Assembly (NCBI GenBank): GCA_041645165.1
Contig: JBAZQN010000001.1
Location: 53,971 to 117,970, forward strand
DNA: 64,000 nucleotides
Source: Patescibacteria group bacterium
GTDB lineage: Bacteria; Patescibacteriota; Patescibacteriia; 2-02-FULL-49-11
Reading direction: 5' to 3'
In this document: one piece after another, positions 34,003-58,400 of the stretch
Numbering within the stretch: the stretch's first letter is position 1
How the letters are laid out: every line of letters begins with the position of its first letter
The notes under the pieces: model-generated
Databases searched by the model: none
What the model saw: the letters and a program-made list of their open reading frames with translations, nothing else
What the model was told of the DNA's origin: nothing
Made by a program: the position numbers and the translations under genes

Positions 34003-34125
34003 CCAATTGATAATTTTCAATTTTCAAATACCAATTTTCAAATAATTTCCAATGACCTAATTTCCAAACGTTTGAAAATTGAGAATTGATGCATTGATTG
34101 AAAATTGAGCATTGAAAATTACTGA
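34003..34125. repeat. family C AT-rich palindromic repeat (copy 4, inverted relative to copy 3)
   Basis: Reverse complement begins cagtaattttcaatgctcaattttcaatcaatgcatcaat, matching copy 3. Confidence 0.65.
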
Positions 34126-40039: not shown

Positions 40040-40040
40040 A

Positions 40041-40997
40041 TTATAATGCGTAAATATCGCTGTAGAGTTCCTGCGGATCGGGAAACGAGGCTATTTTTGC
40101 TTTCCGAACGCTTTCAGTCAATTGTTGTTGCACTGATTCCTCATACCTCTTCAGGTCGTCGTTCATCCCTTGGGAGAACAATTTCGTACGTTGCAGTTCG
40201 AGGGGATCCCGCGCTTTCCATTGTTTGTATATTTCTTCTGAGCGGTATCCCGCATGGAAGTCGGTATACATTCCGACGTGTTCATAGTAACGGTAGTACT
40301 TAAAGTGGAGAAAAGCTGGCCGTTGATCGGAGCGGAGCTGGGCAATTGCTTGAGTAGTGGTTTGATAGATTTGTTGTACGTCTGTCGTTTCATTTGCATA
40401 TGCATTGCAGTCAAATTGTCGCACAATATCAGTAATTGAACGATAGCCATGCCGTTCTTCCGTCGAGGTATGGATTGCAAGATCATTGTCTTCGCAGATA
40501 AAGAGAATAGGGAGTTTTTTTAAACACGCAAAATTAATGCTTTCCCAGAAAACACCTTCATCAGTCGCCCCATCACCAAAGAATACCGCCGTTATTCTTC
40601 CCGTCGCAAGATATTGTTGAGCAAGAGCGCTTCCTACCGCCATAGGGATGGTGGTGCCCACTACTGCGGAGGTTGCGACCAGTCCGTGTTCAGGCGAGGC
40701 GATATGCATTGATCCTGCCTTTCCTTTCTGCGTACCTGTCGCTTTGCCGTAGAGTTCACAGAAGAATGCGTCAGTTTCCATGGTCCTCGCGAGGTAGATG
40801 CCATGGCTGCGGTAGGTGCCGAAGAGGTAATCATCCTTTGCAAGCGCTTGTAGCACGCCTGCCGCAATGTGTTCACCTCCGACATACAAGTGGCAGGGAG
40901 TCTTCATTTCATCCTCTTCATAGTGCGCTCTGATTTTCTCTTCCGTGGCGCGGATGAGGTACATCTTTTTGTAGAGTTCGAAATTGAGGTTATCCAT
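40041..40997 (-). CDS. TPP-dependent 2-oxoacid dehydrogenase E1 component, alpha subunit
   Basis: ThDP-binding GDGATDEGVFWESINFA motif. Directly upstream of the beta subunit, separated by 1 nt. Confidence 0.75.
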   Translation of the reverse strand: MDNLNFELYKKMYLIRATEEKIRAHYEEDEMKTPCHLYVGGEHIAAGVLQALAKDDYLFGTYRSHGIYLARTMETDAFFCELYGKATGTQKGKAGSMHIASPEHGLVATSAVVGTTIPMAVGSALAQQYLATGRITAVFFGDGATDEGVFWESINFACLKKLPILFICEDNDLAIHTSTEERHGYRSITDIVRQFDCNAYANETTDVQQIYQTTTQAIAQLRSDQRPAFLHFKYYRYYEHVGMYTDFHAGYRSEEIYKQWKARDPLELQRTKLFSQGMNDDLKRYEESVQQQLTESVRKAKIASFPDPQELYSDIYAL

Positions 40998-41055: not shown

Positions 41056-41991
41056 TTATACAAGATTCGAAAAATGATTATTCCTAATGATTTGGAATCC
41101 TTTTATTAATTCCCTAATACCGTCGGAAAGATGGTAGCGGGGCACAAAACCTGTCTTTTCAATTTTTTCATTGCTTACGATGTAGTTTCGCTTATCCCTA
41201 TCCTCGCCAATTTTTGCATCGGTAAAATAAAAATCAGGCACCTGCTTCTTGATCTCCTCGCATAATTCCCATTTGCTCAAGTTTGCATCGCTCAATCCGA
41301 CATTATACACGTTGTTTTTCATTTGATTCAGATTATTCAACGCGTGCAAGAAAGCGCGTGCCACGTCGCGCACATGGATGTAATTCCTTTTAAAATGCGA
41401 TTCGAATAGGATAAGGAAGCGGTCGTTCACCGCGCGATGGACGAAATCGTTGACAAGGAGATCGAGGCGCATGCGCGGGCTTATGCCGAACGCGGTAGCC
41501 AGGCGCAGGGTAATGGCATTGCCTGCTTCAAGGATTTCTTTCTCTGCCTGCACTTTCAGCCTGCCATAGAGCGAGACGGGGCGAAGCGGCGTTTCTTCAG
41601 TGCAATATATCCCTTCTTCGCCAACGCCGTAGCCGCTGTTGGTCGTGGGATAGATAATGAGCTGATCCGGCCGTCTCGTTTTTAGCATATGGCGCACCGC
41701 GTCCACAATGACCGCCTGCGCTTCGTGCGGGTTGCGGTCGCACAAAGGCGCGCCCGTGAGGCATGCAAGCGGGAAAATCGCGTCAGCATCACTAATGAGT
41801 TTTTCCATGAGCCCTTCATTCCTGACATCGCCGTGGATGATGGCAAGATCGGGGTCATGCACGACATCAAGGAGCGGCGTCTGGCCGTAGCGAAAATTAT
41901 CCACGACCGTAACCTTGTGCCCTTCTTGGAGAAGGGCAGGGACGAGGATGGAGCCGATATATCCGGCGCCGCCGGTAACGAGGATATGCAT
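41056..41991 (-). CDS. NAD-dependent epimerase/dehydratase (extended SDR)
   Basis: ILVTGGAGYIGS and an extended-SDR fold. Start likely at MHILVTGG. Confidence 0.75.
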   Translation of the reverse strand: MHILVTGGAGYIGSILVPALLQEGHKVTVVDNFRYGQTPLLDVVHDPDLAIIHGDVRNEGLMEKLISDADAIFPLACLTGAPLCDRNPHEAQAVIVDAVRHMLKTRRPDQLIIYPTTNSGYGVGEEGIYCTEETPLRPVSLYGRLKVQAEKEILEAGNAITLRLATAFGISPRMRLDLLVNDFVHRAVNDRFLILFESHFKRNYIHVRDVARAFLHALNNLNQMKNNVYNVGLSDANLSKWELCEEIKKQVPDFYFTDAKIGEDRDKRNYIVSNEKIEKTGFVPRYHLSDGIRELIKGFQIIRNNHFSNLV

Positions 41992-42175
41992 ATTTATTCT
42001 CATTTATACCTCCATAACAATATCATATCTTGTGGGTTTGTTCAATTTGACAATATAAGAGAATTCGTGGTAGAAAGAGGTGGTAAAAAATAACTCACGC
42101 GGCTGTTTGAAAAAGAAAAAATGAATTTTTCAGACGGGCGATTTCTTTTCACAATTCAAATCATGAGGTGAAGTT

Positions 42176-42814
42176 ATGCAACAATCAAATTTATTCCCGC
42201 CGAAAATTTTGCCTCCCCTCACAATTCTCGGTACCGATAGTGGCAGACGGCGCGCCCTACTTGAGGCCGATTTTCAAATCGGACCAGATCCCATCAAAGA
42301 TGTTGTTAAAAAGTTTGGAGGATGGGGTCGCAATATCCCTAACATAGCCGAACAGTTTCCCGCCATTCACGTTATGGCGATCACGAAGGATCGGCAGGTG
42401 ATCGCGCTTTATCATCAACGAGTGTGGCGCGGAATTCGGCTCGAGTTCTCAGGTGGTAACGTCGCTCTTGGACAGGATCCGGAGCAGGTCATCCGGGAAC
42501 GATTGCTGAAAGAAACCGGCTACGTCGCCGGTCCTGTAAAAATTCTCGTCTTTGATCATGAGTACAAGGAGGGTGATTTCGACCCGGCAAGCTGTCCGAT
42601 TGGATATCTCATGGTTCTTGCAACGAACTGCGAGCTCGACGAGAACTATGAGGGCACGATGGGCGAACGATCGGAAGTGATCCTCACACCGTTGGAAGAT
42701 TGGGTACCGTTATTGCTGAATCATCGTTACATTGATGGCAAAACGGCAACCATCACCCTCGCCGTGCTGGACGAGATAGGGGTGAAGTTTGATTTTTCGA
42801 GCGTTCAAATTTGA
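42176..42814 (+). CDS. hypothetical protein, possibly degenerate NUDIX-like
   Basis: GGNVALGQDPEQVIRERLLKETGY loosely fits the NUDIX box. Confidence 0.3.
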   Translation: MQQSNLFPPKILPPLTILGTDSGRRRALLEADFQIGPDPIKDVVKKFGGWGRNIPNIAEQFPAIHVMAITKDRQVIALYHQRVWRGIRLEFSGGNVALGQDPEQVIRERLLKETGYVAGPVKILVFDHEYKEGDFDPASCPIGYLMVLATNCELDENYEGTMGERSEVILTPLEDWVPLLLNHRYIDGKTATITLAVLDEIGVKFDFSSVQI

Positions 42815-42920
42815 GCGTTTTCTCGTTCAAACGGTAAAAGGTCAATGTATCCATATATTTTGGTGCGTTGGCCTTTTCAATTTTGGCGAGTGTGAGATAA
42901 TAAGCAAAGCGTGCACGTCT

Positions 42921-43030
42921 CACGTCATCCCGCAGGCAAGATGCGGGAACCAGAAATAAAAATAAACAAAAAACCGATCGATTTTCTGTTTATGTTTTGT
43001 CTGGATTCCTGCCTGCGCAGGAATGACAAC
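42921..43030 (-). repeat. structured repeat family B, core copy in reverse orientation
   Basis: cgtcatcccgcaggcaagatgcggga...atcgatt...ggattcctgcctgcgcaggaatgac is the reverse complement of the B core hairpins with different loops. The outer TIRs are absent. Confidence 0.65.
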
Positions 43031-43062
43031 AGCGTGAACGCTAGGGATAAATGTGTAATTTC

Positions 43063-43855
43063 AGGTATGCTTAATGAGACTCAAGAATATTTAAATTTCG
43101 CTGCGGAATTTGCCAAAAAGGCAGGCGAAATTGTGATGGAATTTCGCGGTAGAGTGAAAAATGTGGAATGGACCGCCCGGACGCATTTCCGGACGGAGAT
43201 TGATACGAAGGTGGGGGAGTTGGTGCGCCGCGAGATTGGACAGAGATTTCCGGAGCACAATATTCACTCGGAAGAATTTGAAGATAAGGACGCAAAAAGT
43301 CCTTATACTTGGGTCATTGACGAACTGGACGGCACTATCCCATATTTTCGCGGCACGACTGATCATTTTTCTGTATGCATCAGTCTTTGTGAAAACGGCG
43401 TGCCGATTATCGGCGTAGTGAATGCGTGCGGGCGCGGCGAAATGTACACAGCGGAGAAAGGAAAAGGAGCATTTTGTAATAGCGAAGCAATTCACGTCGG
43501 TGATACCACAGAAGTCAACCATGTAATTATGGGAATTGATCCAGGTAAATTCGACCGTCAGGCATACGTGCCTTTCATTAATCGTGCTATGGCGCTGGAC
43601 GGTATTTCATGTTTTCTTCAGTCCGGCTGCGCCAGTGTGCCGCTCTGTCTGGTCGCGAGCGGGAAGTACGATGCGTACCTTGCAACCTCGCTCAACCCAG
43701 AAGACATGGCTGCTGCGGTGTGTATTATTCGTGAAGCCGGTGGGAAGGTTACGAATCTTAAGGGTGAAGAATGGAAACTCGGCGATGCTTCGATTCTCGC
43801 GGCTAATCCCGCGCTTCACGAGAAACTCTCGGATTTTTTTAAGATAGGCATATAA
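43063..43855 (+). CDS. inositol monophosphatase/CysQ-family phosphatase
   Basis: WVIDELDGTIPYFRG and WDxAAG-like blocks. The upstream extension of the 42911 ORF overlaps repeat B2 and was discarded. Confidence 0.75.
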
Positions 43856-43970
43856 TTTTGAGGATGCAGACTTTGTCCGCCATTTCGCGCAAAATGGCGG
43901 ACAAATAGTTTAACCGTTCATTTCGAGCCAAATGATCAGTTGCAATTAGGATTGAAGAGTTAAGAATTTT

Positions 43971-44004
43971 ATCCCACTATTTTACGATCGTATAATAGTG
44001 GGGT
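43971..44004. promoter_or_regulatory. palindrome copy P3 (cccactattttacgatcgtataatagtgggg)
   Basis: Perfect dyad identical in core to P1; it also shares upstream taaga(a/t)ttt context. Confidence 0.45.
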
Positions 44005-44063
44005 TGAGTTAAAGGTGACGTGAAAGATACTAAACGAAATAAGATAAAAAAGCGATGGGGGAA

Positions 44064-45221
44064 TTAAACACTATTAACCACATTGCAAATGTAGTGCACG
44101 TCTTCTGGGGTGATGGACTCGTTATTGGGCAGGAAGAATCCGCAGGAATGGATTTTATCGGATACCTCGTCATGGAACTCGCCGTAGCGTTCGCTCCAGA
44201 AGGGGTGAAGGCCGAGGTTGCCGGCGGAGAAAAGCCGCGTTTCAATGTGATGCGCATCGAGCGCTGCCACGATTTGTTTCCGGTGAGCGCGGTCGCGCGC
44301 AAGCGCGCCGAATGAAATGCTGCACGGCGCTGCTTTTTCGCTCCAGCGCTGCCATTCCAAAGAGGGGAGGAGTTTCGCATAGAGGAGGTGGTTTTCCGTG
44401 CGGCGTTTCGTCACGGCGTTTGCCTTATCAATCATGCGCAATCCTAAAAACGCTTGTGCATCAGTGGTGCGAAGATTAAATCCGGGTACAATAAAGGTGA
44501 AAGGCTCGTGCCAGTCGTCAAGATGATATTTTTGCATGAACGCGGACCTTTTCTCTTTGGGAAGGTCTTTGAGCCATCCATGGCTGCGCAGCATTAAAAG
44601 CAGATGATAAAGATCTTCATCATCCGTGTTTACCATGCCTCCTTCAATGGTGGACAGTTGATGGCCGAAAAAGAAAGAAAACGACGACATGGCGCTGAAG
44701 GCACCCACTTTTTTGCCGCCGTATTCGGCCCCCAGCGCGGCGCACGCGTCTTCCATGAAAAAAAATCCGTAGCGGCGCTGCAGTGCGGCGAGTGAATCCA
44801 TATCCATGGGCACTCCCAGCACTTGGACCGCAATGACGGCGGCAGGATCATGCTGCTGCAGCAGGCGTTCCAATTGCGACAGGTCGAGGCCGAAGTTATC
44901 CTTGTCCGCTCCGCACATGAGAGGCTCAAAGCCGAATTGCATAAATGGCGCAATGGTGGTGACCCACCCTACGCTCGGCACGACCACTTTTCTATTTTTT
45001 AATTTTCCGGATAAGAGCGCCGCATACGCCATGAGCAGGTTCGCGGAAGAGCCGGAATTGCAAAATACCGCATATTTCGTGCCAATCCAGCGAGCCCATT
45101 GGCACTCGAATTCAAGCGTCAGCGGCCCTTTAGTCAATTGCGGGTTATGCTGCAGCCAATCCGCCAGGGCGTTCAGATCGTGCTGATCAATAATTTGTTC
45201 TGCAAGTTTATACTGTCTCAT
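44064..45221 (-). CDS. DegT/DnrJ/EryC1/StrS-family PLP-dependent sugar aminotransferase
   Basis: KYAVFCNSGSSANLLMAYAAL plus the conserved Lys region. Confidence 0.8.
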   Translation of the reverse strand: MRQYKLAEQIIDQHDLNALADWLQHNPQLTKGPLTLEFECQWARWIGTKYAVFCNSGSSANLLMAYAALLSGKLKNRKVVVPSVGWVTTIAPFMQFGFEPLMCGADKDNFGLDLSQLERLLQQHDPAAVIAVQVLGVPMDMDSLAALQRRYGFFFMEDACAALGAEYGGKKVGAFSAMSSFSFFFGHQLSTIEGGMVNTDDEDLYHLLLMLRSHGWLKDLPKEKRSAFMQKYHLDDWHEPFTFIVPGFNLRTTDAQAFLGLRMIDKANAVTKRRTENHLLYAKLLPSLEWQRWSEKAAPCSISFGALARDRAHRKQIVAALDAHHIETRLFSAGNLGLHPFWSERYGEFHDEVSDKIHSCGFFLPNNESITPEDVHYICNVVNSV

Positions 45222-45937
45222 GATGTAGAAGAGAAATAATCTAAGGCTTTACTATACCGTTCCGGCGTACCTATGTCGATGAACTGTTCAGAGGTGGCAA
45301 ATCCGTACAATCCCTTGCCAATGAGTGCAGGGAATAGGTCGTATTCAAGAGACGTCTTTGCGTCTGGCGGGATGAGGGAGAGCGCCTTCTTATGGAAGAG
45401 GTAGATACCGGCATTTCTCCATTGCGCCTCTGGGAGATTTTCTTTTTCTCTAAACGCCACAATGCGCTTACTGCGCTCGTCAATTATTACGTTGCCTGCG
45501 TCAGTGCGCTCATTACATTTACTGCATACCATAGTTGCGAGCGTGTTTTTATGCATAAAGTGCTGCTGTGCTACTTCAAGGAGATTAACCGGACAATAGG
45601 AATCTCCATTGGCAACAAAAAAATATTCACCGCGCAAGAGCGTTTCAGCCTGTTTGAGAGCGCCCCCTGTCCCGAGGGGCGCGTCTTCTTTTGAATACAC
45701 AAGGTGTTTTGTGTAAGGACTTGAGCGGTAATAACTCTCGATATCCTCCGCCTTATAACCAACGCAGAGGATGATGCGTGTTGTGCCTATGCGGAGGAAT
45801 TGCTCAATCAGCCGTGAAAGAAAGGGTATGCCGTTAAAGGGGGCAAGTACTTTAGGGATACTCGGATCTACTGCACGGAAACGGGTACCCAAACCTCCGC
45901 ACAGGATGCATACCTCTAATGGTTCATTCCTTTTCAT
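45218..45937 (-). CDS. sugar-1-phosphate nucleotidyltransferase (HddC/PtmE-like)
   Basis: CILCGGLGTRFRAVDPSIPKVLAPF. 4-nt overlap with the aminotransferase gene. Confidence 0.75.
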   Translation of the reverse strand: MKRNEPLEVCILCGGLGTRFRAVDPSIPKVLAPFNGIPFLSRLIEQFLRIGTTRIILCVGYKAEDIESYYRSSPYTKHLVYSKEDAPLGTGGALKQAETLLRGEYFFVANGDSYCPVNLLEVAQQHFMHKNTLATMVCSKCNERTDAGNVIIDERSKRIVAFREKENLPEAQWRNAGIYLFHKKALSLIPPDAKTSLEYDLFPALIGKGLYGFATSEQFIDIGTPERYSKALDYFSSTS

Positions 45938-46935
45938 GGTACGACACCTCCCAAGGTAGTGTGGTTAAAGATAACGGTACTTCCTTCTGTTTCAAATTTA
46001 AACGGAATTTCTAAAAGCCGACGCAATCGTTCTCGCACCATAGGCTGTGACGAGGGGGGCACAAAGAGGAGGAGAAATCCACCTCCGCCGGCGCCCAGGA
46101 TCTTCCCGCCCCTCGCGCCTGCGTGCAGCGCATCCTCATATATTGAATCGATCACTTCATTCGTGACTCCTTCGGCGAGTGACTGCTTGAGGCGCCAATT
46201 TTCATGCAAAAGTCCCCCAAACTCTTGGATTGCGCCGGTCTTCAGTATATGGCGCGCTTCGTTGACGAGTTGCATGAGATGCGACAACTCTTTTTCACGC
46301 TTGGAGAAATTGTCTATTTTGCTTTTTTCGATGAGTGAAGCCATTCTGGTAAATCCAGTAAAAAAGAGCATGAGGTGGCATTGCAGCTCGGCACTCACCT
46401 CAGGGGATACCTCGAGGGGGCTCACCGTGATCTCGCCATCGGGATGAAACGTAATATGGTTAAATCCTCCGTACGCGGCGGCAATCTGATCTTGAGAGCC
46501 GACAGTTTCCCGTATGCGTTGCTGTTCCACCTCGATTGCCTGTGCCGCGAGCGTCTTTTTATCGATTGTTCTGCCATTCAAAACATGGAGGGCGTGGAGG
46601 AGTCCCACGGTGAATGATGAGCTTGTGCCAATGCCGGATCGTGCGGGCAGATCGCCATCATGGTGCACCTCCAATCCCTCGTCATGTCCCAGGAATTTGA
46701 TGCATTCGCGCACCACGGGATGCTGGATTTCATCCGTGTCATTCGCCGTTTCAATATGGGAATAGACAATGCGGTGTTTGTGTTCAAAAAAGGGAGGCAG
46801 ATTGCGGCAGCTCACATAGCAGTATTTGTCGATGGAGGTGCTGATGACCGCACCGCCGTGCATGAGAAACCATTTTGGATGGTCAGTGCCACCGCCGAAA
46901 AAAGATATACGGTAGGGTGTTCTCGTAATGACCAT
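45934..46935 (-). CDS. GHMP-family sugar kinase (D-glycero-D-manno-heptose 7-phosphate kinase HddA-like)
   Basis: GHMP motif LPARSGIGTSSSFTVGLLHAL. 4-nt overlap with the nucleotidyltransferase gene. Confidence 0.7.
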   Translation of the reverse strand: MVITRTPYRISFFGGGTDHPKWFLMHGGAVISTSIDKYCYVSCRNLPPFFEHKHRIVYSHIETANDTDEIQHPVVRECIKFLGHDEGLEVHHDGDLPARSGIGTSSSFTVGLLHALHVLNGRTIDKKTLAAQAIEVEQQRIRETVGSQDQIAAAYGGFNHITFHPDGEITVSPLEVSPEVSAELQCHLMLFFTGFTRMASLIEKSKIDNFSKREKELSHLMQLVNEARHILKTGAIQEFGGLLHENWRLKQSLAEGVTNEVIDSIYEDALHAGARGGKILGAGGGGFLLLFVPPSSQPMVRERLRRLLEIPFKFETEGSTVIFNHTTLGGVVP

Positions 46936-46939
46936 ATAT

Positions 46940-48916
46940 TTACATTGAGAGAGCAGAAGAGGGAATCACGGGGTTGGGAAATTTGCTCATGTCAATAATC
47001 CAGGCGTAGCCGCGCCAGCGGTCTTTCTCCGTAATTTCATGTAGGATCAGATCGCGGTAGCTGGGCACCTCGCTTTCATGTCCCCAGAATCGGCTTGTGC
47101 CAAATGTTTTTAATTGGGCTACAGCCACTTCTTTGATTTGCCTCGTTCGCAAAAGCTCATTTAATGCGGGATCTTTAGTGAAGTCTCCATCTTTAATCGT
47201 TTCCGGCACTGATTCTAAGTTTAATGCTTTGCTGCTTGTGCCCGGGATGATGACATAGCCATTCTTGACTTCGTTGAGAGTGTTAATATACTGAATTTCG
47301 TATTTATTGCGTATCGTAGGATTAATATTATTAATAACAGCGTCATTATAGACGGTTTTATAGGTAGAAAATTGCGTGATACCAAGGGCATCAAGTTTGC
47401 GAATGAGGAAAGCGCTTGTCATGCGCGCCGGGTAGATATCGCGCGCGAGCTGAAGCCAATTCCAAATCACGGTAGGTATGAATGCACCGATCGCAGTCAA
47501 CCAAAATAGAAACGGCGCGGTAGTAACATGAAAAAGCGCATAACCAATAAACATAAGCATGCCGATAAACCCTGGCAGGTATGAGCGTCCAAGCTGGGGT
47601 CCTTTCGTAAATTCTCCCCACGCAATAGGGGAGATCGCCAGCAGCAACATAGCCAAAGACGGAATGATAATCAACAGCGGCCGGGTTGACAGGTACCCAA
47701 GACCTGCCAGGTATATTACGCCCAGTCCGCAGAGGGCGGTAGGTAGGGGAACAAAGCGCCAGAACAGTCTAGGAACCCAGCGCCAACCCGCGCCGCGCAT
47801 ATAATAGTTAATCGGTTTGCCAATACTGGCAAAGTAGTTTACATAGAGACGAAAGTGACCCTTGGTCTGGCCGGCATAGTAGTACCAGAAGTATTGTTTA
47901 AGATTATACGGCAAATTTGGAATATTGAAGAAAATAACAGTAATGGCAAATCCGGCAAGCACAGGCAGGAAGTAGGATATGCCGAGCGCATTAATGATAA
48001 TGATTACCCAGAGAACAAGCGCTATTACTTTTTTTGTAACTACCACAAGCCGGGCGTGGGCGTGGGCAAGATAATGATCCAGGGTGAATTTACCTCGACT
48101 ATTGATGATTTTGTTAAGGAATCGCGGCGCTCGTTCGTAGTAAATTTCCGTAACTATCTTTTTATACCATCCCCAGAGCATGAGAAGACCGATGAAGGTG
48201 AAAAGAGGGAGCCAGATATTTATAAGCGTTACATGATTGTGGCGCAAAAGCTCGACAAGCCCGCGGTGGTCAGAGGCGATGAGTAGAGGAGAGTATTTGG
48301 CATAGAAGATCGCAGCCAGAAACAGCATAAAATATTTTCGTGACGAAGCTGAGGCAAACATAGTAAGGCTAAAAAGCGCGCCGCTGACTCCTAACCAGAG
48401 AAAGGCGTTGGTAGTGGCAGCGGTATAATCGTTTACTTGCTGGACGACGAGAATTGTTAAAAGAAAGATTGTGGTGCCATCAATAATATGTCCGCCGAAA
48501 AGCGCCACTTGCCAAATCCATAGGGAAGTAAGAAACAATATGCTTACTACAAAAGCGACAGATGCGTTCCAATAGTCTTTTCCAATGAGGTAGAGGAGAA
48601 TCGTGGAAGCGGCATTGGCGAATCCGCACATCGTGAGAAGCGGATGTTCTGTTAATTTGTCCCCCATGATTTTTTGGAATACCGCAATCAACATGATCGT
48701 CACATCTTTCATGCGCGTCTTCCCAATGCCATATTTGTGAATATCAGACGGCAGGCGCCATTTGTAGGCTTGAGCTGCGGCATAGACTTGTCTTTCGTTA
48801 TCGGTGTCATCGGTGATATACTGGCTTCCTCGTGTGCGGCATGAGAAGTAAATGGCAGAGCCTAAGGAAAGGACAATGATGATGAGAAAGTACCAGTCAA
48901 ACATAATGATATTCAT
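46940..48916 (-). CDS. large polytopic membrane protein, GT-C-fold-like (candidate oligosaccharyl/glycosyl transferase or polymerase)
   Basis: About 12 TM helices over 470 aa, then a ~190-aa C-terminal soluble domain. Resembles the PMT/ArnT/YfhO architecture. No exact motif recognised. Confidence 0.35.
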   Translation of the reverse strand: MNIIMFDWYFLIIIVLSLGSAIYFSCRTRGSQYITDDTDNERQVYAAAQAYKWRLPSDIHKYGIGKTRMKDVTIMLIAVFQKIMGDKLTEHPLLTMCGFANAASTILLYLIGKDYWNASVAFVVSILFLTSLWIWQVALFGGHIIDGTTIFLLTILVVQQVNDYTAATTNAFLWLGVSGALFSLTMFASASSRKYFMLFLAAIFYAKYSPLLIASDHRGLVELLRHNHVTLINIWLPLFTFIGLLMLWGWYKKIVTEIYYERAPRFLNKIINSRGKFTLDHYLAHAHARLVVVTKKVIALVLWVIIIINALGISYFLPVLAGFAITVIFFNIPNLPYNLKQYFWYYYAGQTKGHFRLYVNYFASIGKPINYYMRGAGWRWVPRLFWRFVPLPTALCGLGVIYLAGLGYLSTRPLLIIIPSLAMLLLAISPIAWGEFTKGPQLGRSYLPGFIGMLMFIGYALFHVTTAPFLFWLTAIGAFIPTVIWNWLQLARDIYPARMTSAFLIRKLDALGITQFSTYKTVYNDAVINNINPTIRNKYEIQYINTLNEVKNGYVIIPGTSSKALNLESVPETIKDGDFTKDPALNELLRTRQIKEVAVAQLKTFGTSRFWGHESEVPSYRDLILHEITEKDRWRGYAWIIDMSKFPNPVIPSSALSM

Positions 48917-48931
48917 TAAAAATATTATTCA

Positions 48932-50725
48932 TTAAAAGTGAACGGTATTCACTTTATAGAAATAAGAATCTTTGTCTTTGAGGAGCGCATCGGGTCTGCC
49001 GCGCTCTTTAATGATCCCATCTTGGAGAATAATCAATGAGTCACAATGCTTGAGAGTGGTTAAGCGGTGCGCAATGATGATAATCGTCACCCTTCCCTTC
49101 AAGTGCTCGATCGTTCGTTGGATAAGCGCTTCTGATTCATTATCGAGGGCGCTGGTCGCTTCGTCAAGAATGAGGATATCAGGCTGACGCGCCAAGACGC
49201 GAGCGAGGATGATGCGTTGCCGCTGTCCGGCAGACAGCTCCATTCCCCTTTCCCCCACTACGGTGCCGTACCCTTCGGGAAGTTTGTCAATAAAATCATG
49301 AATATACGCCAAGCGCGCGGCGGCCATAACCTCTGCGCGTGTCAAATCATGGTAGAACGTAATGTTATGCTCAATGGTGTCATTGAGCAAAAAAATGTCT
49401 TGCGACACGTAGCCCACATGGCGCCGCCAGTCCGCCAGGCGGATGGAATGTATGTCTATTCCATCGAGGGTAATGGCGCCATGGAGCGGTGTGAGGAGGC
49501 GCAGTATCAGATCGACGACGGTGGTTTTGCCTGAACCGGAAGGCCCAATGATCCCCACCATAGATCCTTTTTTCACTTCAAACCGTACGTTTTTCAGCAC
49601 CGCATCGGTTTCGCGGTGGTAATGAAACTGTACGTCGCGGATCGCGAGGAGCGACTGAAAAGAAAAAGGCTGCGTTCCCTCGTCGTGTTCCCGATTCTGG
49701 CGCATGGATTCGCGATGATCGGTGACGCTTTTGAGGTAGGGCGCCGATTCGCTCATACCGTTGAGCTTTCCCTGCATGGATTGGACGTACGAGAATATCT
49801 TTTGAATGAGATAGAGAATAACGGCAAAGGAGGCGAAGTTAAACTGCGGCGATTGGTAAGAGAAGGCGAATACTGCAAGGATGAATACGATGCTGACTGG
49901 CTGGATAAACACGTTCAGTCCGCTGTTGTAGAGTGAGAGCTGGAGGCGTGCGCGCCGTAAATGTTCAAAGAGATGTTCTCCCCTTATGAGGACGCTTGTT
50001 TCTGCGTTTATAGCTTTCACGGTTTTTATCCCGATCATGTGCTCGTTGATGTGGTGGGAGACGGCCTTTCCCATTTCCGAGAGACGGTATGACACCTTGC
50101 GCGTGCGGTAGAGCAGCGGTTTGATGATGAGAAAGAGCGCGGCGCCAACAATGAGCGTGACGATCGTGATCGGCGCCGATATGTTGACTGCCACGAGCAG
50201 ATACATGATGAGGTTGGTGAGGATGAGGACGGAAGAGCTCAAGAGCAGGAGCACCCCGGAGGAAGCGCTCACATGGTCCACAAGCACTTTTTCCAAGTGG
50301 CCGATTTTCTGGTTGAGCAAGTGCGGCCACGACGCGTCGAGCGACTCTCGGAAGAGTTCCGTCCTCATTTTCATCTCGTAGCTATAGCTCATGCGAGCGT
50401 TGAGATAGTTGGCCGCAAAGAGCACGAATGCTTTCGCGATAAACAGGAGGGCGATCAAAATAGCGAGCGAGGTGAATGTGAAGGCTATATGAGCGCGGAC
50501 GAATGCCGTCCTGATGATATTGGATATAGCATCGGCTCCTGGGGGCGTAGTGTCGCTTACTAGGGAAAAGAGAGGGATGACCGCATTAATGCCCACTCCT
50601 TCGAGCAAACCGCTCAGGAATCCCAAGGCAGTCATGAGCGCCACTTGCGGCTTATATGCGCCAAAAGCTTTATTGAGTAGGTGATAGGCGAAGGTGATTT
50701 TATTGTCTTTCAGGAGAGCAGCCAT
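48932..50725 (-). CDS. ABC exporter, fused permease/ATPase (MsbA/PglK/Wzk-like, candidate glycolipid flippase)
   Basis: Walker A GPSGSGKTT, signature LSAGQRQRIILARV, Walker B ILILDEATSALD, and a six-TM N-terminal domain. Confidence 0.85.
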   Translation of the reverse strand: MAALLKDNKITFAYHLLNKAFGAYKPQVALMTALGFLSGLLEGVGINAVIPLFSLVSDTTPPGADAISNIIRTAFVRAHIAFTFTSLAILIALLFIAKAFVLFAANYLNARMSYSYEMKMRTELFRESLDASWPHLLNQKIGHLEKVLVDHVSASSGVLLLLSSSVLILTNLIMYLLVAVNISAPITIVTLIVGAALFLIIKPLLYRTRKVSYRLSEMGKAVSHHINEHMIGIKTVKAINAETSVLIRGEHLFEHLRRARLQLSLYNSGLNVFIQPVSIVFILAVFAFSYQSPQFNFASFAVILYLIQKIFSYVQSMQGKLNGMSESAPYLKSVTDHRESMRQNREHDEGTQPFSFQSLLAIRDVQFHYHRETDAVLKNVRFEVKKGSMVGIIGPSGSGKTTVVDLILRLLTPLHGAITLDGIDIHSIRLADWRRHVGYVSQDIFLLNDTIEHNITFYHDLTRAEVMAAARLAYIHDFIDKLPEGYGTVVGERGMELSAGQRQRIILARVLARQPDILILDEATSALDNESEALIQRTIEHLKGRVTIIIIAHRLTTLKHCDSLIILQDGIIKERGRPDALLKDKDSYFYKVNTVHF

Positions 50726-51679
50726 TTAGACAAGATTATGTTGGTACCATTCGTACATTTTCGTTAAACCTTCTTTCAATTCAATCTTCGGTTTCCAGCC
50801 CAATGCGTTTATCCGGCTCGTGTCCAGAGTTTTCATCGGCATACCGTCGGGTTTGGTATGGTCCCACACGATTGTCCCGTGATAATCTGTAATTTTTTTC
50901 ATAAGTTCTGCCAGTTCATAAATGGCGATGCCCATGCCGGTTCCCACATTAAAAAATATTTCTCCGCGTTCATTCTGTGTTTTGGTGGGATTAAATTTAT
51001 CCATGAGCATAAGGCACGCTTCCGCACAATCTTCGCTATAAAGGAATTCCCTGATCGCGGTTCCTGATCCCCAGAGTTGAAGTTCAGGCGCTTGGTGTAT
51101 TTTTGCTTCGTGAAATTTACGCATTAATCCGGGAATTACATGAGAATTGATTGGATGGAAATTGTCATGAATCCCATATAAGTTAATGGGCATAATAGCG
51201 ATATAATTGGTGCCGTATTGCCGGTTGTAGCTTTGGCACATTTTCATGCCGGCGATTTTAGCTATCGCATACGGTTCATTTGTTGGTTCTAAGGGCCCTG
51301 TAAGGAGATATTCTTCTTTCATGGGTTGGGGGCACTCACGCGGATATATGCACGCAGATCCAAAAAACAACAATTTTTTTGCATGGGAGAGATAGGACTG
51401 ATGGATAACATTAGCGGTAATCGCGAGATTTTGATAAATAAATTCTGCGGGTAATGTATTATTAGCGATAATACCGCCCACTTTTGCCGCTAGCAAAAAT
51501 ACATAATCTGGTTTCTCCTGCGTAAAGAATTCAGCTACCGCGTTCTGGTTGGTGAGGTCAAGTTCTGCGTGAGTTTTTGTAATGATATTATGATATCCAT
51601 ACTTTTGTAATACTTGCAGCAGTGCATGTCCCATAAGTCCTGTATGCCCTGCGACGAAAATTTTTGAATAAGTATCCAT
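50726..51679 (-). CDS. fcl: GDP-L-fucose synthase (GDP-4-keto-6-deoxymannose 3,5-epimerase/4-reductase)
   Basis: KIFVAGHTGLMGHALL...VFLLAAKVGGIIANNTLPAEFIYQNL. Start likely at MDTYSKIF. Confidence 0.85.
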   Translation of the reverse strand: MDTYSKIFVAGHTGLMGHALLQVLQKYGYHNIITKTHAELDLTNQNAVAEFFTQEKPDYVFLLAAKVGGIIANNTLPAEFIYQNLAITANVIHQSYLSHAKKLLFFGSACIYPRECPQPMKEEYLLTGPLEPTNEPYAIAKIAGMKMCQSYNRQYGTNYIAIMPINLYGIHDNFHPINSHVIPGLMRKFHEAKIHQAPELQLWGSGTAIREFLYSEDCAEACLMLMDKFNPTKTQNERGEIFFNVGTGMGIAIYELAELMKKITDYHGTIVWDHTKPDGMPMKTLDTSRINALGWKPKIELKEGLTKMYEWYQHNLV

Positions 51680-51683
51680 AGTA

Positions 51684-52745
51684 TTATGGTTGCATAAATT
51701 TAGCAGGATCCTCACCCATTGTGCGAAATTCAGCTTCCATCATGATGCGGACCAGTTCCTCAAATGAGGTATGCGGCGTCCAGCCAAGATTTTCCCTTGC
51801 TTTAGTCGCATCGCCGAGCAGCATATCAACCTCTGAAGGGCGAAAATAGCGCGGATCGATTTCTACCAAAACCTTGCCGCTTTTCGCATCAATGCCTTTT
51901 TCATCCATTCCGTTGCCTCGCCATTCGAGGTTGTATCCTACCAGCTGGGCTGCGCGTGTTGCGAACTCGCGTACGCTGTGTGATTCGCCTGTTGCGATTA
52001 CATAATCGTCAGGCGTATTCTGCTGAAGTATAAGCCACATCGCTTCTGCATATTCAGGCGCATAGCCCCAGTCGCGCCGTGCATTGAGATTGCCAAGATA
52101 AAGCACTCCAGGTTTTGCCAAACCAAGCTTTATTTTCGCCAGAGTATTGGTAATTTTTTTTGTGACGAAAGTGCCGCCGCGCCGGGGTGATTCGTGATTA
52201 AAAAGAATGCCGTTAGACACGAAGAGCCCGTACGCTTCACGGTAATTTACGGCTATGTGGTAGGCGAACGCCTTGGCGCAGGCGTAGGGTGAGCGCGGAT
52301 GAAATGGCGTTGTTTCTTTTTGCGGCGTCTCCTGCGCCTTGCCGAACATCTCGCTTGAACCCGCCTGATACACTTTCACATGCGCTTTGGTGTCTTTTAT
52401 CGCATCTAAAAGGCGCAGAGTGCCAAGACCATCGACGTTGCTGGTAAATTCTGGAATTTCAAAGCTTACCTGAACATGGCTTTGCGCGCCAAGATTGTAA
52501 ATCTCATCTGGCTCTGTGCGTTCAATGATGCGGTTAATGCTGCTCGTATCACCCAAGTCCCCATAATGGAGATACAGTTTTCTGCCCTGTTCATGGGGAT
52601 CCTGGTAAATCTGGTTGAGGCGTTCGGTATTAAAGCTTGATGATCTTCGTATGATGCCATGCACTTCATATTCTTTTCGCAATAGCAGCTCTGCAAGATA
52701 AGAACCATCTTGACCAGTGATGCCGGTGATGAGCGCTTTTTTCAT
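51684..52745 (-). CDS. gmd: GDP-mannose 4,6-dehydratase
   Basis: [21 protein letters not shown]...[20 protein letters not shown]. Confidence 0.9.
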
Positions 52746-52919
52746 AAGGGTTATCTGCTATTGATATCGGAGCTTACTGGTACCGTAATAATTTAATTTG
52801 GTATGCCAGTATTGCGTTTAATATCCGTGTACTTTACATATTCAAGATTCACCTTTAAATAACTTAATTTTTACGGTACTGGTATAATTGTATCATAAGA
52901 GCAGCATATCAGTATTTCC

Positions 52920-53186
52920 TTATGATTCAGCGCTTATATCCCATTGTTTAACATATTTGCCTATACCGTGCCGCTGAAGTTTATTTTGGCGCCGCAGGGA
53001 TATTTGGGTCCATGCGAGCAGGCTTTCAAAGTTGATCTTATATCTTCCTTTGATAACGATAAATTTAATCTCCTTATTTTTTAGCGCGGTTCTTATTGTT
53101 TTATCAGAGAGGCCGAATAACTTTGCTGCCTCTGAAACCGATACCCTTATTAAAGGAATAGATGAAGGTGCATTATTTTCTGGCAT
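52920..53186 (-). CDS. small HTH DNA-binding protein (excisionase/MerR-like HTH_17 type)
   Basis: VSEAAKLFGLSDKTIRTALKNKEIKFIVIKGRYKI. Confidence 0.5.
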   Translation of the reverse strand: MPENNAPSSIPLIRVSVSEAAKLFGLSDKTIRTALKNKEIKFIVIKGRYKINFESLLAWTQISLRRQNKLQRHGIGKYVKQWDISAES

Positions 53187-53390
53187 ATCTTAAGGTATAA
53201 TCATATTAAACATAATCACTATATAATAGTTTTAAAATCTAGACAAGTCTAGAAGTTCATAGTATAAATAATAATTATCCACATTGGATTTCTAGATATA
53301 TCTAGATATTAGTATAAATTTTGTTATAAATTATATAAAAATAAGACAATATTCAGGTGTAACAGATGGTATTTAATAACGTCTACTTTA

Positions 53391-53963
53391 ATGCAAGACG
53401 CATCAGATAGCCTAATTGAAAGGATACGGCAGGGCGACAGAGAGGCCTTAGGAGAAATGTACGACACATTTGCCCCTTCTCTTTATCGTTATATCTCCTT
53501 TCGCATTGCACATACACAGGATAGGGAAGATATATTGAGCAGTGTTTTTTTAAGGGTATTTGAATCCATTGCGAAAGGGAAAATGATAACGAACATCAGG
53601 GCGTTTCTTTATCAATCAACGCGGAATGCGATTATAGATTATTACCGGGAGTCATCACGCAGTTCTTCAGTTATCATAGAATGGAATGAAGAGTTATTGC
53701 AGGACGAACAGTCTCTTACGCCCCTTTTGCATTCGGAACAACTTATCGACACCGCTATCCAAAACAGAATCATAGCGAAAGAGCTTGGGAACTTGAAAGA
53801 AGAATATCGTGAACTACTTTCATTGCGATATATAGAAGATCTGGAAATAGATGAGATTGCGGCGATTATGCAGAAATCTCACATCGCGGTACGCGTTACG
53901 CTCCATAGGGCGCTCAAAGCGCTCAAGAAATTAGTAGAAAGTACTATAAGTGCTAATAAGTGA
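53391..53963 (+). CDS. RNA polymerase ECF-type sigma-70 family factor
   Basis: Region 2 (LYRYISFRIAHTQDREDILSSVFLRVFE) and region 4 HTH (IDEIAAIMQKSHIAVRVTLHRALKALKK). Confidence 0.85.
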   Translation: MQDASDSLIERIRQGDREALGEMYDTFAPSLYRYISFRIAHTQDREDILSSVFLRVFESIAKGKMITNIRAFLYQSTRNAIIDYYRESSRSSSVIIEWNEELLQDEQSLTPLLHSEQLIDTAIQNRIIAKELGNLKEEYRELLSLRYIEDLEIDEIAAIMQKSHIAVRVTLHRALKALKKLVESTISANK

Positions 53964-55149
53964 TATGCGAGATAATGATCTCATAAAATCATTAATAAAT
54001 CTTCGCCAGCACACATCGGTGCCGGAGCGCAGCCTTGTTTCATTGCGCACAAAAGTGCTGAATAGCGCTGGTTCTATCACGTTTACACAAAATAGCCGCA
54101 TACCTCCCTTACCAATACAAACGACTTCATTATTCGTTTTTTGGAAATCATATATACAAACCCATTTTAGCATTATTCCGCAGGTGGCAACCGCAGTGGT
54201 AATTGTGCTGGTGATAGTCGGCGCAGGTTCGGCATATTCCTTACACGCAAAACCCGGCTCCCCTTTATATAAAGTAAGGATAACCTTGGAGAATACGAAC
54301 GTGGCGCTCCATTCCCAGCCAACGAGGCGTACTGCACTGGAAATCCAGCTTTTTGATAAGGGAGTGAGCGAGCTCAAAGAAATGAGCACAAATGACGCAT
54401 CTTCTTTCGCAGTAATCGCGGTCATAGATACTCTTGACGAGCGGTTAGTCAAAGTAAACGATAGGATCGGCACATTAAAGGGGGTTCAATTGGACTCACA
54501 AGTGGTACCCACCATAATTTCCGCAACCGATAAAGCCATATATGCACATAATACGCTGAAAAATCTTCGAGAATCTGCTCCGATCGCCATGCAGTCGAAG
54601 TACAATAGAGCTATTGCGGCGTCATCGCGATTGAAGATTACTGCGCTGCAGGCTCTGGTAACCTATTCTGACGGCACAAAAGATACCAAGGCGCAGGAAG
54701 CAGTCGCTGAAAAGCTGCAGGATGAGATTATTGCCGCCAAAGAAAGCATTAATACGTTAAAAGGGGCACAAGAGCCGGAAACGGCTGCAAAGACAGATAA
54801 TATAAAGAATCTTGAAAATGCTATTAACAATGCCGAGATTGCGCTTAAAGAAGGAAATTTAAGCATTGCACTAAACCATATTATTGAATCCAATGAATTA
54901 TTAGAATCTTCCAAAGGCATTGTAGAGGGGGATTCCATAGAAATTATAGGAAGTTTACAGTCAGTAACTTCAACTAACGAATCCAGTACACCCGTCATTG
55001 TGGATGAACCTGTTGTAGTGCTAGAACCTTCTGGAAATTCGAATAGATCTGTATTGTCCAGCACTACTTCATTACCTCTAAATATTGAAGAAAATATTGA
55101 ACAAACACCAAAAGAACCGCCAGAGTTTCCGTTGGGGTTTGATCTTTAA
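53950..55149 (+). CDS. putative anti-sigma factor: single-pass membrane protein with extracytoplasmic coiled-coil domain
   Basis: Overlaps the sigma gene by 14 nt. One TM helix (VATAVVIVLVIVGAGSAY) and an alpha-helical C-terminal domain. Placement is typical of ECF anti-sigma factors. Confidence 0.5.
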   Translation: MLISDMRDNDLIKSLINLRQHTSVPERSLVSLRTKVLNSAGSITFTQNSRIPPLPIQTTSLFVFWKSYIQTHFSIIPQVATAVVIVLVIVGAGSAYSLHAKPGSPLYKVRITLENTNVALHSQPTRRTALEIQLFDKGVSELKEMSTNDASSFAVIAVIDTLDERLVKVNDRIGTLKGVQLDSQVVPTIISATDKAIYAHNTLKNLRESAPIAMQSKYNRAIAASSRLKITALQALVTYSDGTKDTKAQEAVAEKLQDEIIAAKESINTLKGAQEPETAAKTDNIKNLENAINNAEIALKEGNLSIALNHIIESNELLESSKGIVEGDSIEIIGSLQSVTSTNESSTPVIVDEPVVVLEPSGNSNRSVLSSTTSLPLNIEENIEQTPKEPPEFPLGFDL

Positions 55150-55486
55150 AGTTGACAAAAGAGTATTCTGTTGTTCTAATGTATAATGTACAGAGAAAAG
55201 GGATGCTTGCCTGGATGCGACTTATTGTTGTAGATGAGCAAGAATATTTTAGTTTTATTTGTAATAAAGATTTATGGCATTGCTCATAGAGGGTTATGTC
55301 ATAACTTTATAATTTAAAAAGGTCGGCCTCTTATTTATTCAAGCATTTGGATAAATAAGTTGTAACGCTAATAAACTTGTCTGTTATATTTGATTTTAAT
55401 AGGTCGAATCATTATTAATAAAGTAACAGGCAAGATACACACTGTACGGTACTTTATCTACCGGCAGGGTGCGAAAGGAAGTACGA

Positions 55487-58400
55487 ATGTCGAATTTTAT
55501 CAAAAAAAGTTTTACATGGGGAGTTGTGGGCGCCACTATCGTATGGTCGCTCGGAATATTTGTTCTCCCCGTTCAAGTGAAGGGCGCGCAGGACGGCGAT
55601 CTTATCAAGATGCCGGGTAATCCTGCGGTATACCTTCTCAAGGGCGGCAAGAGATTTGTATTCCCGAACGACAAGGCATACTTTACGTGGTACAGCGACT
55701 TCTCTGGAGTGGTAACGGTATCGCAATCCGAGCTCCAATCGTATCCCATCGGCGGCAACGTGACTTACAAACCAGGTACCAGGTTAATAAAGATCACGAC
55801 CGATCCGAAGGTATATGCGGTTGAGCCAAACGGAACTCTCCGATGGGTAACATCGGAAGCGATCGCCGTTTCCCTCTACGGATCAAACTGGAACAAGAGA
55901 ATTGATGACGTTCCAGATCCGTTCTTCGTGAACTACACCACCGGCGCAGATGTCACGACTGCAACATACCCGGTTGGCTCTATAGTGAAAGAAGAGAGCT
56001 CCGCCACGGTCTATTACATTGCCGAGAGCAATACCAAGCGGCCATTCGCCACTGATGCGGCGCTCACCGCGAACATGATGAAGACCGGCAATGTGCTCAC
56101 CGCGACCAGTCTCGCCAGCTACACTTCAGGCACCTCTGTCACAGGCAAAGAGGACACGCTTGCAGTATTTGGCGGCACCACGAGCACCGGCCCCGCGGCA
56201 GGCGGCACGCTTTCATTGGCGCTCTCTGCTGACACGCCCGCGTCTGGCGTCTTCGTGAAAAGCGCTGCGCGCGTTCCGTTTACCTATATCAATGCGACCG
56301 CAACCGGCGGCGAAGCAGTGATTGACTCGATGGTAATCCAAAGAGGCGGCATTGCGCAGGACTCGATATTTTCAGATATCACCATTCTTGTGGATGGGAC
56401 GCAGGTGGGATTAAACAAATCCTTTAACTCCGTGCACCAAGCCACATTGTATGATGACATCACCATCCCAAGCGGCACTACCAAGAAGATCATGCTGACC
56501 GGTAATACGTCAGCGATGGCCTCAAACTCTGGTGAAATGCCGATCCTTGGTTTGGCTGCAGTTACCCTCAAGAGCGGCACCTTGTCAGCATCGCTGCCAA
56601 TCTATGGCAACCCGATGACTGCCAATAACACTATCAGTATCGCTGCCGTAACCGTCGCGCGCGGTCCGCTTGACCCCGGCGCCACTTCTACCCAGAAGAT
56701 CGGCACCAAACAATATGCCTTCACCTCGGTGAAACTTAGCAATGATTCAGTAGAAAAAGTGCAGGTGGAAGAGCTTATCTGGGATCAGGCAGGTTCAGCT
56801 GACGATTCAGACATTTCAAATGTCAATCTTTTGGTTGACGGCGTTGTGATTGCGTCCCTGTCCAATCCAGTGGACAAGAAAGCGCACTTCAAGCTTGCAA
56901 CCCCATATTTGATTGATAAGGGGAAGAACAAAGAGTTTACCATCAAGGCGGATATTGATTCTGGATCAAACCGCACGGTGGACTTTGACATCGAAAAGAA
57001 TACCGATGTCGTGGTAAAGGGATTAACCTATGGCTATTATGTCCTGGCAACAGGATGGCCATCAGCGACTGATCCTCGATTGAGCGGTTATGCCGTGACC
57101 ATTGATACTGGCTCGCTAAAGATTGAGCCTGTCGCCACCGCGTCCAACAAGATAACGGACGGCTCCACAGGCCAGATCTTGGGCATGTTTAATTTTGAGG
57201 CAAAGGGTGAAGATGTTTCCATCACTTCTCTCGGCATCAAGGTTACCGTTTCAAGCTCCGCGGCAAACGTATCTGACGTGACCAATATCACGCTCTATGA
57301 CGAGGCAGGCCTTGCGGTAGCCGGTCCGGTAGACCCTACAGGAACTACCGCAGATATTACCGCAACTTCCACTGATACCATTACGGTGCCCGTCGGCATT
57401 CATAAATACACCGTTAAGGGTGATTTGAGCACTGATTTTGTGTCTGCGGATACGGTGTTAGTGAAAATTAAGCCTTCAGACATCACTTCAAAGGGCGTCA
57501 CGACAGGCAAGACGGTCACCCCGACGCCCGCGACATACCAAACCTCTACCACACAAACGGTGCAGGCAGGATCTCTTGTGGCGAACATTTCCACGACTCC
57601 TGTGGCACAGACCGTGGTCGCAGGCACCAATGGGCATACCTTTACGAACTATGTGCTTGACGCGCAAGGTTCTGGCGAAGATATCCGTGTCACGCAGATA
57701 AAGGCTGCCATGCATACCACGGGGTCTTCCTACCCTGCGTTGATTTCAGGATTGAAGCTTTATGACGGCTCCCTCGAGCTCGTCACGTCAAATGATCCTG
57801 ATCCGACGAACACCACTGCAGCCGCATCGGCTACTTCAACCTTCACCTTTGTGAATGCGCTTGTAGTGCCGAAGGGAACCTCCAAGACTTTGTCGCTCAA
57901 GGGGAATATCTCCAAGAGCGTCACGTCTGGCACAGTGAAACTCGGGCTTCAGAATGATGCGACGAATGCTATCGCGGCGACAGGCAAGGATACCGGCGCG
58001 ACCATTACTCCTACCTACAGCTATTCTGACGGCCAAGCGATGACACTCACTGATGCTGGCACACTCACGCTCTCGGCAGACGCGTCTACGCCAATCGCAG
58101 GGCATGTTCCCGGTTCATCCACCGGACTCCCTGTGGGCGTATTCTCCATGCAATCGAGGCATGAGGATATCAATGTAGAAAAGATTTGGTTCAGGCTCTC
58201 AGCGGTGAACAGCGGCGGTCCAGATCAAGTTGACAAGATTTGGCTCACTGACGGCACGAAGACTGTAGGGGTTACTCCAACCTCTTCAGATTCTTCCGCT
58301 CCGGTTCAGGTGCTCTTCGATGTGTCACTTGATCCATTCGTGGTTGCCGCAAACACTACCAAGCTCTATACCCTCAAGGTTGATACGGCGCAAGTTGACA

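Follow-up and report, generated by a model that had tools for sequence, protein, structure and literature searches.

A GT-C-fold membrane protein family that pairs with ABC exporters in Patescibacteria and other phyla, and its possible inverted orientation

The window analysed here, a stretch of 64,000 nucleotides (nt) from a metagenome-assembled genome (MAG) of Patescibacteria (Candidate Phyla Radiation, CPR), encodes a fused ATP-binding cassette (ABC) exporter immediately upstream of a membrane protein of 658 amino acids (aa). Our best explanation is that this protein belongs to a family of membrane glycosyltransferases with the GT-C fold that has no annotation and is a remote outlier of the PMT_2/ArnT-like group. 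Together with the exporter and, usually, a GT-A glycosyltransferase of the TIGR04440 family, it forms a conserved module within gene clusters for unusual sugars, and the best explanation of these clusters is that they make activated sugars of heptose-type, nonulosonic acid, amino and branched kinds. By definition, GT-C enzymes use lipid-linked donors and act at the non-cytoplasmic face of the membrane. From the distribution of charged residues, we infer that the subfamily found beside exporters may be inserted the other way up, so that its catalytic face would point inward and the enzyme would act before the exporter, a reading to which we assign a probability of roughly 45%. An unannotated GT-C-fold family that has kept its catalytic motifs and has an ABC exporter as partner represents a new kind of glycan-assembly module, of relevance to several poorly known phyla (CPR, Planctomycetes, Elusimicrobia, Omnitrophica).

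Gene pair and exporter

The two genes of the pair, like all genes of the operon to which they belong, lie on the minus strand:

48932-50725, minus strand: fused ABC exporter, 597 aa, with six transmembrane (TM) helices and a nucleotide-binding domain (NBD) (Pfam)
46940-48916, minus strand: GT-C-fold membrane protein of the 'short' subfamily, 658 aa, unannotated family

The TAA stop codon of the exporter is followed by a 15-nt spacer, tgaataatattttta, and then by the ATG of the 658-aa open reading frame (ORF); the start annotated by NCBI lies four codons further downstream and gives a protein of 654 aa (P0001). An earlier, sequence-only reading had described a fused six-TM permease/ATPase exporter next to a membrane protein, and both ORFs and the ABC_membrane and ABC_tran matches bear this out; the close spacing also holds, but the distance is one nucleotide shorter than the 16 nt then given.

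In the exporter, ABC_membrane covers aa 67-302 (E = 1.3e-13) and ABC_tran aa 377-525 (E = 4.2e-32) in Pfam searches, and since both occur in one ORF, the protein is a fused TM domain-NBD half-transporter. The best NCBIfam models all score below their cutoffs, namely the HepA family (323 bits; cutoff 725), MsbA (314 bits; cutoff 602) and PglK (231 bits, far under its cutoff of 1000), though each covers the full length of the protein. Matches in the PDB are mainly of the ABCB1 type and cannot tell PglK from MsbA. It is a generic fused exporter, and its lysine and arginine (K/R) bias of 21 versus 3 places the N-terminus inside, as expected.

Fold and conserved motifs of the membrane protein

The 658-aa protein itself has no match in Pfam or NCBIfam. 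Helices of an AlphaFold2 (AF2) model, together with hydropathy, predict 13 TM segments followed by a soluble C-terminal domain; the soluble domain had been recognized from the sequence alone, with a count of about 12 TM helices that falls short of the prediction. The model, built with 12 homologues, is confident (mean predicted local distance difference test score, pLDDT, 83.4; predicted template modelling score, pTM, 0.86), and a Foldseek search with it agrees with a GT-C fold, aligning ~365 residues per match, which corresponds to the TM domain. Because the model is confident, Foldseek agrees and the motif of the first loop is conserved, the predicted GT-C assignment is well supported at the level of the fold. 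The sequence-only suggestion that the protein could be a new GT-C variant, to be checked by structure prediction, is therefore in line with the predicted fold and with the absence of any annotation for the family. The only link to a known family at the sequence level is to PMT_2, which matches 6 of 70 members at E<=0.01 (e.g. P0004 with 27.5 and P0125 with 28.6 bits, against a cutoff of 26.1, over TM2-TM6) and does not match the query. Searching the sequences of the whole PDB with a family profile produced chance matches only and no solved structure.

The following features of the protein are all encoded on the minus strand:

47423-48916, minus strand: TM domain, aa 1-498, 13 TM helices (AF2 helices, hydropathy, per-loop K/R counts), with N-side loops that are tiny and almost uncharged
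48794-48805, minus strand: T38-D39-N40-E41 motif, candidate catalytic motif, ~11 residues past TM1
48332-48352, minus strand: S189-A-S-S-R-K-Y195, short loop linking TM5 to TM6, a candidate site for binding phosphate
47984-48229, minus strand: helical hairpin of TM7 and TM8, aa 230-311, whose tip (aa ~251-293) is rich in K/R, present only in the ABC-linked subfamily
47423-47614, minus strand: E435-x-T-x(3)-Q-x-G-R loop and D493-x-x-P-A-R498-M end of TM13, 93-97% conserved
46943-47410, minus strand: C-terminal alpha/beta domain, aa 503-658, 155 aa, with the motifs PGTSSK, GTSRxW, ESEVxSYRDLIL and DRWRG

Conserved acidic residues in the loops had been named as a hallmark to look for, and D39 of the first loop is invariant in all 87 family sequences; the TDNE motif is the putative counterpart of the acidic motif in the first loop of GT-C enzymes. 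In the same alignment, S57, H60, W133, S189, K194, P333, W380, E435, D493, P496 and R498 are each at least 93% conserved, and D39, S57, H60, S189, K194, P333, W380, E435, D493 and R498 share one face of the protein. S189 does not vary at all and conservation of K194 is 97%; R193 and K194 are candidates for binding the phosphate of a putative polyprenyl-phosphate-linked donor. The tip of the TM7-TM8 hairpin carries a mean of 6.8 K/R. Mobile catalytic loops are typical of GT-C enzymes, and the low pLDDT of the long TM9-TM10 loop and of the flexible E435 loop (<50 at aa 440-443) fits this pattern. The C-terminal domain is conserved more strongly than the TM domain; no solved fold was found to resemble it, and it does not show the STT3 central-core fold.

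The pair had originally been read as a flippase with an oligosaccharyltransferase. The pairing with an exporter stands, but a PglB/STT3-type enzyme does not: the STT3 profile (PF02516) has no match to the query at E<=10 or to any of 70 members at E<=0.01, and the 658-aa protein contains no WWDYG motif, no WWD and not even WW, its conserved C-terminal motifs being different ones. Wzy_C (PF04932) and YfhO likewise match neither the query nor any of the 70 members. String and profile searches thus agree with the earlier impression, gained by eye, that neither a WWDYG nor a Wzy_C signature is present, and of the profiles then put forward (STT3, Wzy_C, YfhO and PMT_2) only PMT_2 yielded anything, in the few members mentioned above. 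A true PglB/AglB/STT3-type oligosaccharyltransferase, which would transfer a lipid-linked oligosaccharide en bloc to asparagine with a PglK-like flippase as partner, is very improbable; we dropped this assignment, given the lack of an STT3 match and of WWDYG, and a C-terminal domain unlike any solved fold.

Charge topology

According to the positive-inside rule, loops rich in Lys and Arg are cytoplasmic. We counted K/R per loop, taking the AF2 helices as TM boundaries and using short loops for the family means. The window protein has 3 K/R on the side of its N-terminus versus 23 on the side that holds D39, K194, E435, R498 and the C-terminal domain. All 87 members show the same sign, with short-loop means of 1.9 K/R on the N-side versus 11.4 on the catalytic side. 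In these sequences the N-side loops are 1-16 residues long; the N-terminal tail has a mean of 3.5 residues and 0.14 K/R, and a conserved Arg follows TM1.

Escherichia coli ArnT proved uninformative as a control (15 vs 12), as the crude hydropathy finder called 12 rather than 13 helices, and a sister subfamily and the ABC exporters of the window were used in its place. Both exporters, the one described above and a second fused exporter distant from the glycan cluster, follow the positive-inside rule (21 vs 3 and 22 vs 5):

8771-10534, plus strand: second fused ABC exporter, 587 aa (ABC_membrane and ABC_tran)

The sister, or 'long', subfamily comprises proteins of ~700-870 aa (e.g. P0116, P0121, P0125). 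It shares with the ABC-linked subfamily TD-x-E, H60, W133, S189, R374/G377/W380, E435, the D-x-x-P-x-R-M end of the TM domain and the C-terminal domain, but lacks the TM7-TM8 hairpin and R193/K194 and bears an extra beta-rich C-terminal extension. Its charges are canonical in 20 of 20 members, with means of 10.1 K/R on the N-side versus 1.8 on the other, and 2.4 K/R in the N-terminal tails; the loops after TM4, TM6, TM10 and TM12 hold 1.5-2.2 K/R each and the TM5-TM6 loop none. Four sister loci with usable flanks have housekeeping surroundings (another PMT_2 gene; leuS/lptE/bamD/murJ; the dcw cluster), and no ABC exporter or sugar gene was found at these four loci. As these four sister loci lack the exporter, the subfamily with mirrored charges is the one recruited to it. 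At the level of sequence, the charge inversion between the two subfamilies is a strong anomaly. Under the positive-inside rule, the mirrored K/R would place the N-terminus of the window protein outside and its C-terminus inside, so that the active face would be cytoplasmic. Literature searches turned up no GT-C enzyme with an inverted topology.

Family distribution and conserved partners

An exhaustive profile search of 1.84 billion representatives recovered 413 clusters at E<=1e-3, 258 of them at E<=1e-30, and every member that carries a name in its source is called hypothetical. Matches within genomes came from Patescibacteria, Yanofskybacteria, Planctomycetes, Elusimicrobia and Omnitrophica. 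We found nothing in the literature on this family, on TIGR04440 or on GT-C enzymes in Patescibacteria.

For neighbour counts, all ORFs of 31 non-redundant loci were clustered; many of the loci that lack an adjacent exporter are truncated contigs. An ABC exporter is present in 16 of the 31, directly adjacent in 12, and a few genes away in three to four more. Since direct adjacency recurs in 12 of 31 loci and in both gene orders, the pairing is not due to chance. It persists at protein identities of 31-80% and across several phyla, and between loci the identities of exporter and GT-C protein fall in parallel (80/60, 47/43, 46/40 and 32/34%), as expected for a co-inherited module. Other recurrent neighbours are short-chain dehydrogenase/reductase (SDR) enzymes (24/31 loci), B12-binding radical SAM (B12-radical-SAM) enzymes (16/31), GHMP kinase (14/31), the TIGR04440 GT-A (14/31) and E1 beta (13/31). 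The presence of E1 alpha/beta and B12-radical-SAM enzymes suggests branched or C-methylated sugars.

The third recurrent partner often follows the GT-C gene directly, and in the window is encoded as follows:

36751-37806, minus strand: TIGR04440 soluble GT-A glycosyltransferase, 161 bits (cutoff 70), with a weak Glycos_transf_2 match

It has no TM segment and no solved homologue. At its end (aa ~297-325) lies a basic amphipathic stretch, WKVALVKKFPFLKILNRTFKKLLGRAL, which could be a membrane-interface helix.

Some loci contain tandem GT-C-like paralogues, adjacent or separated by a GHMP kinase gene (L007, 597-6572; L015, 5861-11836; L010, 8919-11902). A word-indexed protein search with an 87-sequence alignment, which recovered 10 known members, found no domain fusions.

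Orientation and alternative explanations

Taken as a whole, the inward-facing reading runs as follows. The ABC-linked subfamily would be inserted with its N-terminus out, so that the catalytic face, the K/R-tipped hairpin and the C-terminal domain would all be cytoplasmic. The GT-A would probably load a sugar onto polyprenyl phosphate first, and the GT-C enzyme would then pass this sugar on, at the inner leaflet, to an acceptor that is lipid-linked and held in the membrane. Once complete, the lipid-linked product would be flipped to the outside by the ABC exporter encoded next door; transfer on the inner leaflet would imply that the transferase acts before the exporter and not after it. The absence of Pfam matches to a phosphoglycosyltransferase (PGT) and to a small GtrA-type flippase from the window cluster and six related loci with Pfam calls counts in favour of this reading. 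It is an evenly balanced proposition, judged from the same charge statistics, that this is the first GT-C-fold family with a cytoplasmic catalytic face and soluble domain, by inversion of 13 TM helices relative to the sister subfamily, an inversion that would coincide with the gain of the TM hairpin and with recruitment to the ABC exporter. If real, it would be a rare natural flip of a large polytopic enzyme in evolution and would show that GT-C chemistry can operate on the cytoplasmic leaflet.

Several points weigh against an inward catalytic face. Homologous polytopic proteins usually retain their orientation, and the argument for inversion is one of sequence statistics. The use of a lipid-linked donor on the same side of the membrane as the nucleotide sugars has no clear biochemical rationale, and as the C-terminal domain is predicted to lie outside in the sister subfamily, its ligand must exist on both sides. 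The active sites of characterized GT-C enzymes are all extracytoplasmic or lumenal (PMC11127046). A further candidate for support falls away. In the 951-aa protein P0059, the C-terminal domain appeared to be fused with a TIGR04440 GT-A, which shares 33% identity with the copy in the window, with no TM segment between them, and we rejected this protein as evidence for a cytoplasmic domain. It is a singleton from one contig, and the junction is a run of six G (L039, 6657-6662); with five G the sequence reads as a 620-aa ORF ending in TAG and a 333-aa ORF starting at ATG, so that the GT-C and GT-A genes overlap by 10 nt, ATGGGGGTAG. The fusion is probably a homopolymer indel, and because one extra G explains it best, P0059 provides no support for the inversion.

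The main rival is the flippase and transferase idea of the sequence-only reading, generalized and stripped of its STT3 label. In this canonical arrangement, a sugar or short glycan is assembled on polyprenyl phosphate by cytoplasmic glycosyltransferases, the TIGR04440 GT-A among them, and is flipped by the ABC exporter, after which the GT-C protein transfers it outside to a surface acceptor, perhaps the Ser/Thr-rich protein of 1235 aa encoded beside the cluster or a wall glycan; we consider this possible, if rather doubtful. All known GT-C enzymes act in this way, and new GT-C families that have flippases of their own and additional C-terminal domains continue to emerge, such as GT136 with its MATE flippase (PMC11127046). 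The sister subfamily shows canonical charges, and homologues usually share their topology; a triad of GT-A, transporter and GT-C protein fits the logic of GtrB/GtrA/GtrC and ArnC/ArnEF/ArnT, and the surface protein gene lies beside the cluster in both the window and the related MAG L001. However, the cytoplasmic loops would then hold only ~2 K/R in total, while 11 K/R would sit in short translocated loops in 87 of 87 members, including two positive charges in the seven-residue TM5-TM6 loop, and the N-terminal tail would offer three to four uncharged residues before the conserved Arg that follows TM1. In addition, the TIGR04440 protein has no TM segment, and the surface protein adjoins the cluster only in two closely related CPR MAGs. 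Were the canonical orientation correct, the family would still count as new among GT-C enzymes, with a flippase partner of the ABC type and a C-terminal domain that is itself new. It is unlikely that the protein is instead a non-catalytic or differently catalytic partner of the exporter, whether a lipid- or glycolipid-binding subunit like PIG-U/GAB1 or a glycan polymerase or ligase: the invariant Asp of the first loop and the conserved polar residues that form a ring at one face look catalytic, and the C-terminal domain is conserved more strongly than a glycan-specific binding module would be expected to be.

Comparison with known systems

The window protein differs from PglB of the Campylobacter PglK-PglB pair and from archaeal AglB in having no STT3 match, no WWDYG and no counterpart of their C-terminal domain. 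The window cluster and most related clusters also differ from PglK-PglB clusters in that they lack a PGT and contain few glycosyltransferases (Pfam). Relative to the PMT and ArnT enzymes (PMT_2/PMT clan; CAZy GT39/GT83), the query has no PMT_2 match, its C-terminal domain is unrelated to the known ones, and the charge topology predicted for its family is opposite; ArnT works with ArnE/F-type flippases, whereas the window family has an ABC partner.

Three-component extracytoplasmic systems include GtrA/GtrB/GtrC, ArnC/ArnEF/ArnT, CsbB/GtcA/YfhO and the GT136 system of Citrobacter (PMC11127046). The module resembles them in the recurrent combination of a GT-A, a membrane transporter and a GT-C-fold enzyme beside sugar-nucleotide genes, and some of their GT-C families also carry an extra C-terminal domain. 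In those systems, however, the transporter is a small GtrA/SMR or a MATE protein, whereas the module of the window has an ATP-driven ABC exporter, a GT-A with no membrane anchor and a GT-C-like protein predicted to face the cytoplasm.

Wider gene cluster

The pair lies within seven close-packed minus-strand genes running from 52745 to 44064, with intergenic spacing from a 32-nt overlap to a 15-nt gap. A 4-nt gap separates the GT-C gene from that of the GHMP kinase, and the next junctions are 4-nt overlaps. A promoter and terminator scan of 43800-53500 gave a signal no higher than the shuffled expectation. The other five genes are:

51684-52745, minus strand: GDP-mannose 4,6-dehydratase (gmd), first gene of the operon, TIGR01472 556 bits (cutoff 415); Pfam
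50726-51715, minus strand: GDP-fucose-synthase-like (fcl-like) reductase, second gene of the operon, Fcl 442 bits (cutoff 500); Pfam
45934-46935, minus strand: GHMP sugar kinase (Pfam), with an HddA-like match below cutoff
45218-45937, minus strand: sugar-1-phosphate nucleotidyltransferase (Pfam), with an HddC-like match below cutoff
44064-45221, minus strand: DegT aminotransferase (Pfam)

Downstream of this block the minus-strand cluster continues with more sugar-pathway genes (Pfam/NCBIfam), methyltransferases and one GT4 among them:

41056-42003, minus strand: SDR epimerase (Pfam)
38993-40997, minus strand: E1 alpha/beta pair of a thiamine pyrophosphate (TPP) enzyme, pyruvate-dehydrogenase-like (Pfam)
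38384-38947, minus strand: SIS isomerase (Pfam)
37828-38400, minus strand: HAD phosphatase (Pfam)
34119-36747, minus strand: amidotransferase for N-acetyl sugars of the WbuX type (TIGR03573, 368 bits), together with HisH-like and HisF-like genes
27127-32883, minus strand: nonulosonic-acid genes, namely NeuB, a fused NeuC (Epimerase_2)-cytidylyltransferase of 640 aa and two GFO/IDH/MocA oxidoreductases (Pfam)
within 27127-32883, minus strand: MptE/Maf-like protein, 297 aa, weak match

The SIS isomerase, HAD phosphatase, kinase and nucleotidyltransferase constitute a GDP-heptose-type route, and WbuX, HisH and HisF are the known triad for acetamidino sugars. In Planctomycetes-type loci (L008, L009, L022 and L028), the NeuB/NeuC/GFO set is likewise found with the GT-C/ABC/GT-A module. 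No PGT, Wzx or Wzy was found by Pfam among the ORFs of the window cluster, and among this cluster and the six related loci with Pfam calls a Wzx-type gene occurs only in L002/L003.

The window also contains an Inositol_P gene (42911-43855) and a Nudix gene (42176-42814), and in an Elusimicrobia locus (L004, 11991-15892) the GT-C gene is followed by genes for adenosine phosphosulfate (APS) kinase, ATP sulfurylase, a pyruvate-kinase-like protein and an inositol-monophosphatase/CysQ-like protein. The APS kinase, ATP sulfurylase and CysQ-like genes, together with Inositol_P and Nudix in the window, hint at sulfation of the product.

Divergent from the cluster are a helix-turn-helix (HTH) gene and three further genes:

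53391-53963, plus strand: extracytoplasmic function (ECF) sigma factor, preceding the gene of the 1235-aa protein
53950-55149, plus strand: DUF5667 anti-sigma-like gene, likewise preceding it
55469-59176, plus strand: secreted or anchored Ser/Thr-rich surface protein of 1235 aa, with an N-terminal hydrophobic segment or anchor

Ser and Thr make up 24.1% of the 1235-aa protein versus 10.7% of reference proteins, and it has 19 N-x-S/T sequons versus 12.9 expected. It has no Pfam match and is possibly an S-layer or other surface protein; that it is the glycan acceptor, under the canonical orientation, is speculative. In L001 the protein is syntenic and 90% identical, with 60% identity for the GT-C protein and 52-81% for the other neighbours; most of the genes around the GT-C gene appear to evolve more slowly than it does.

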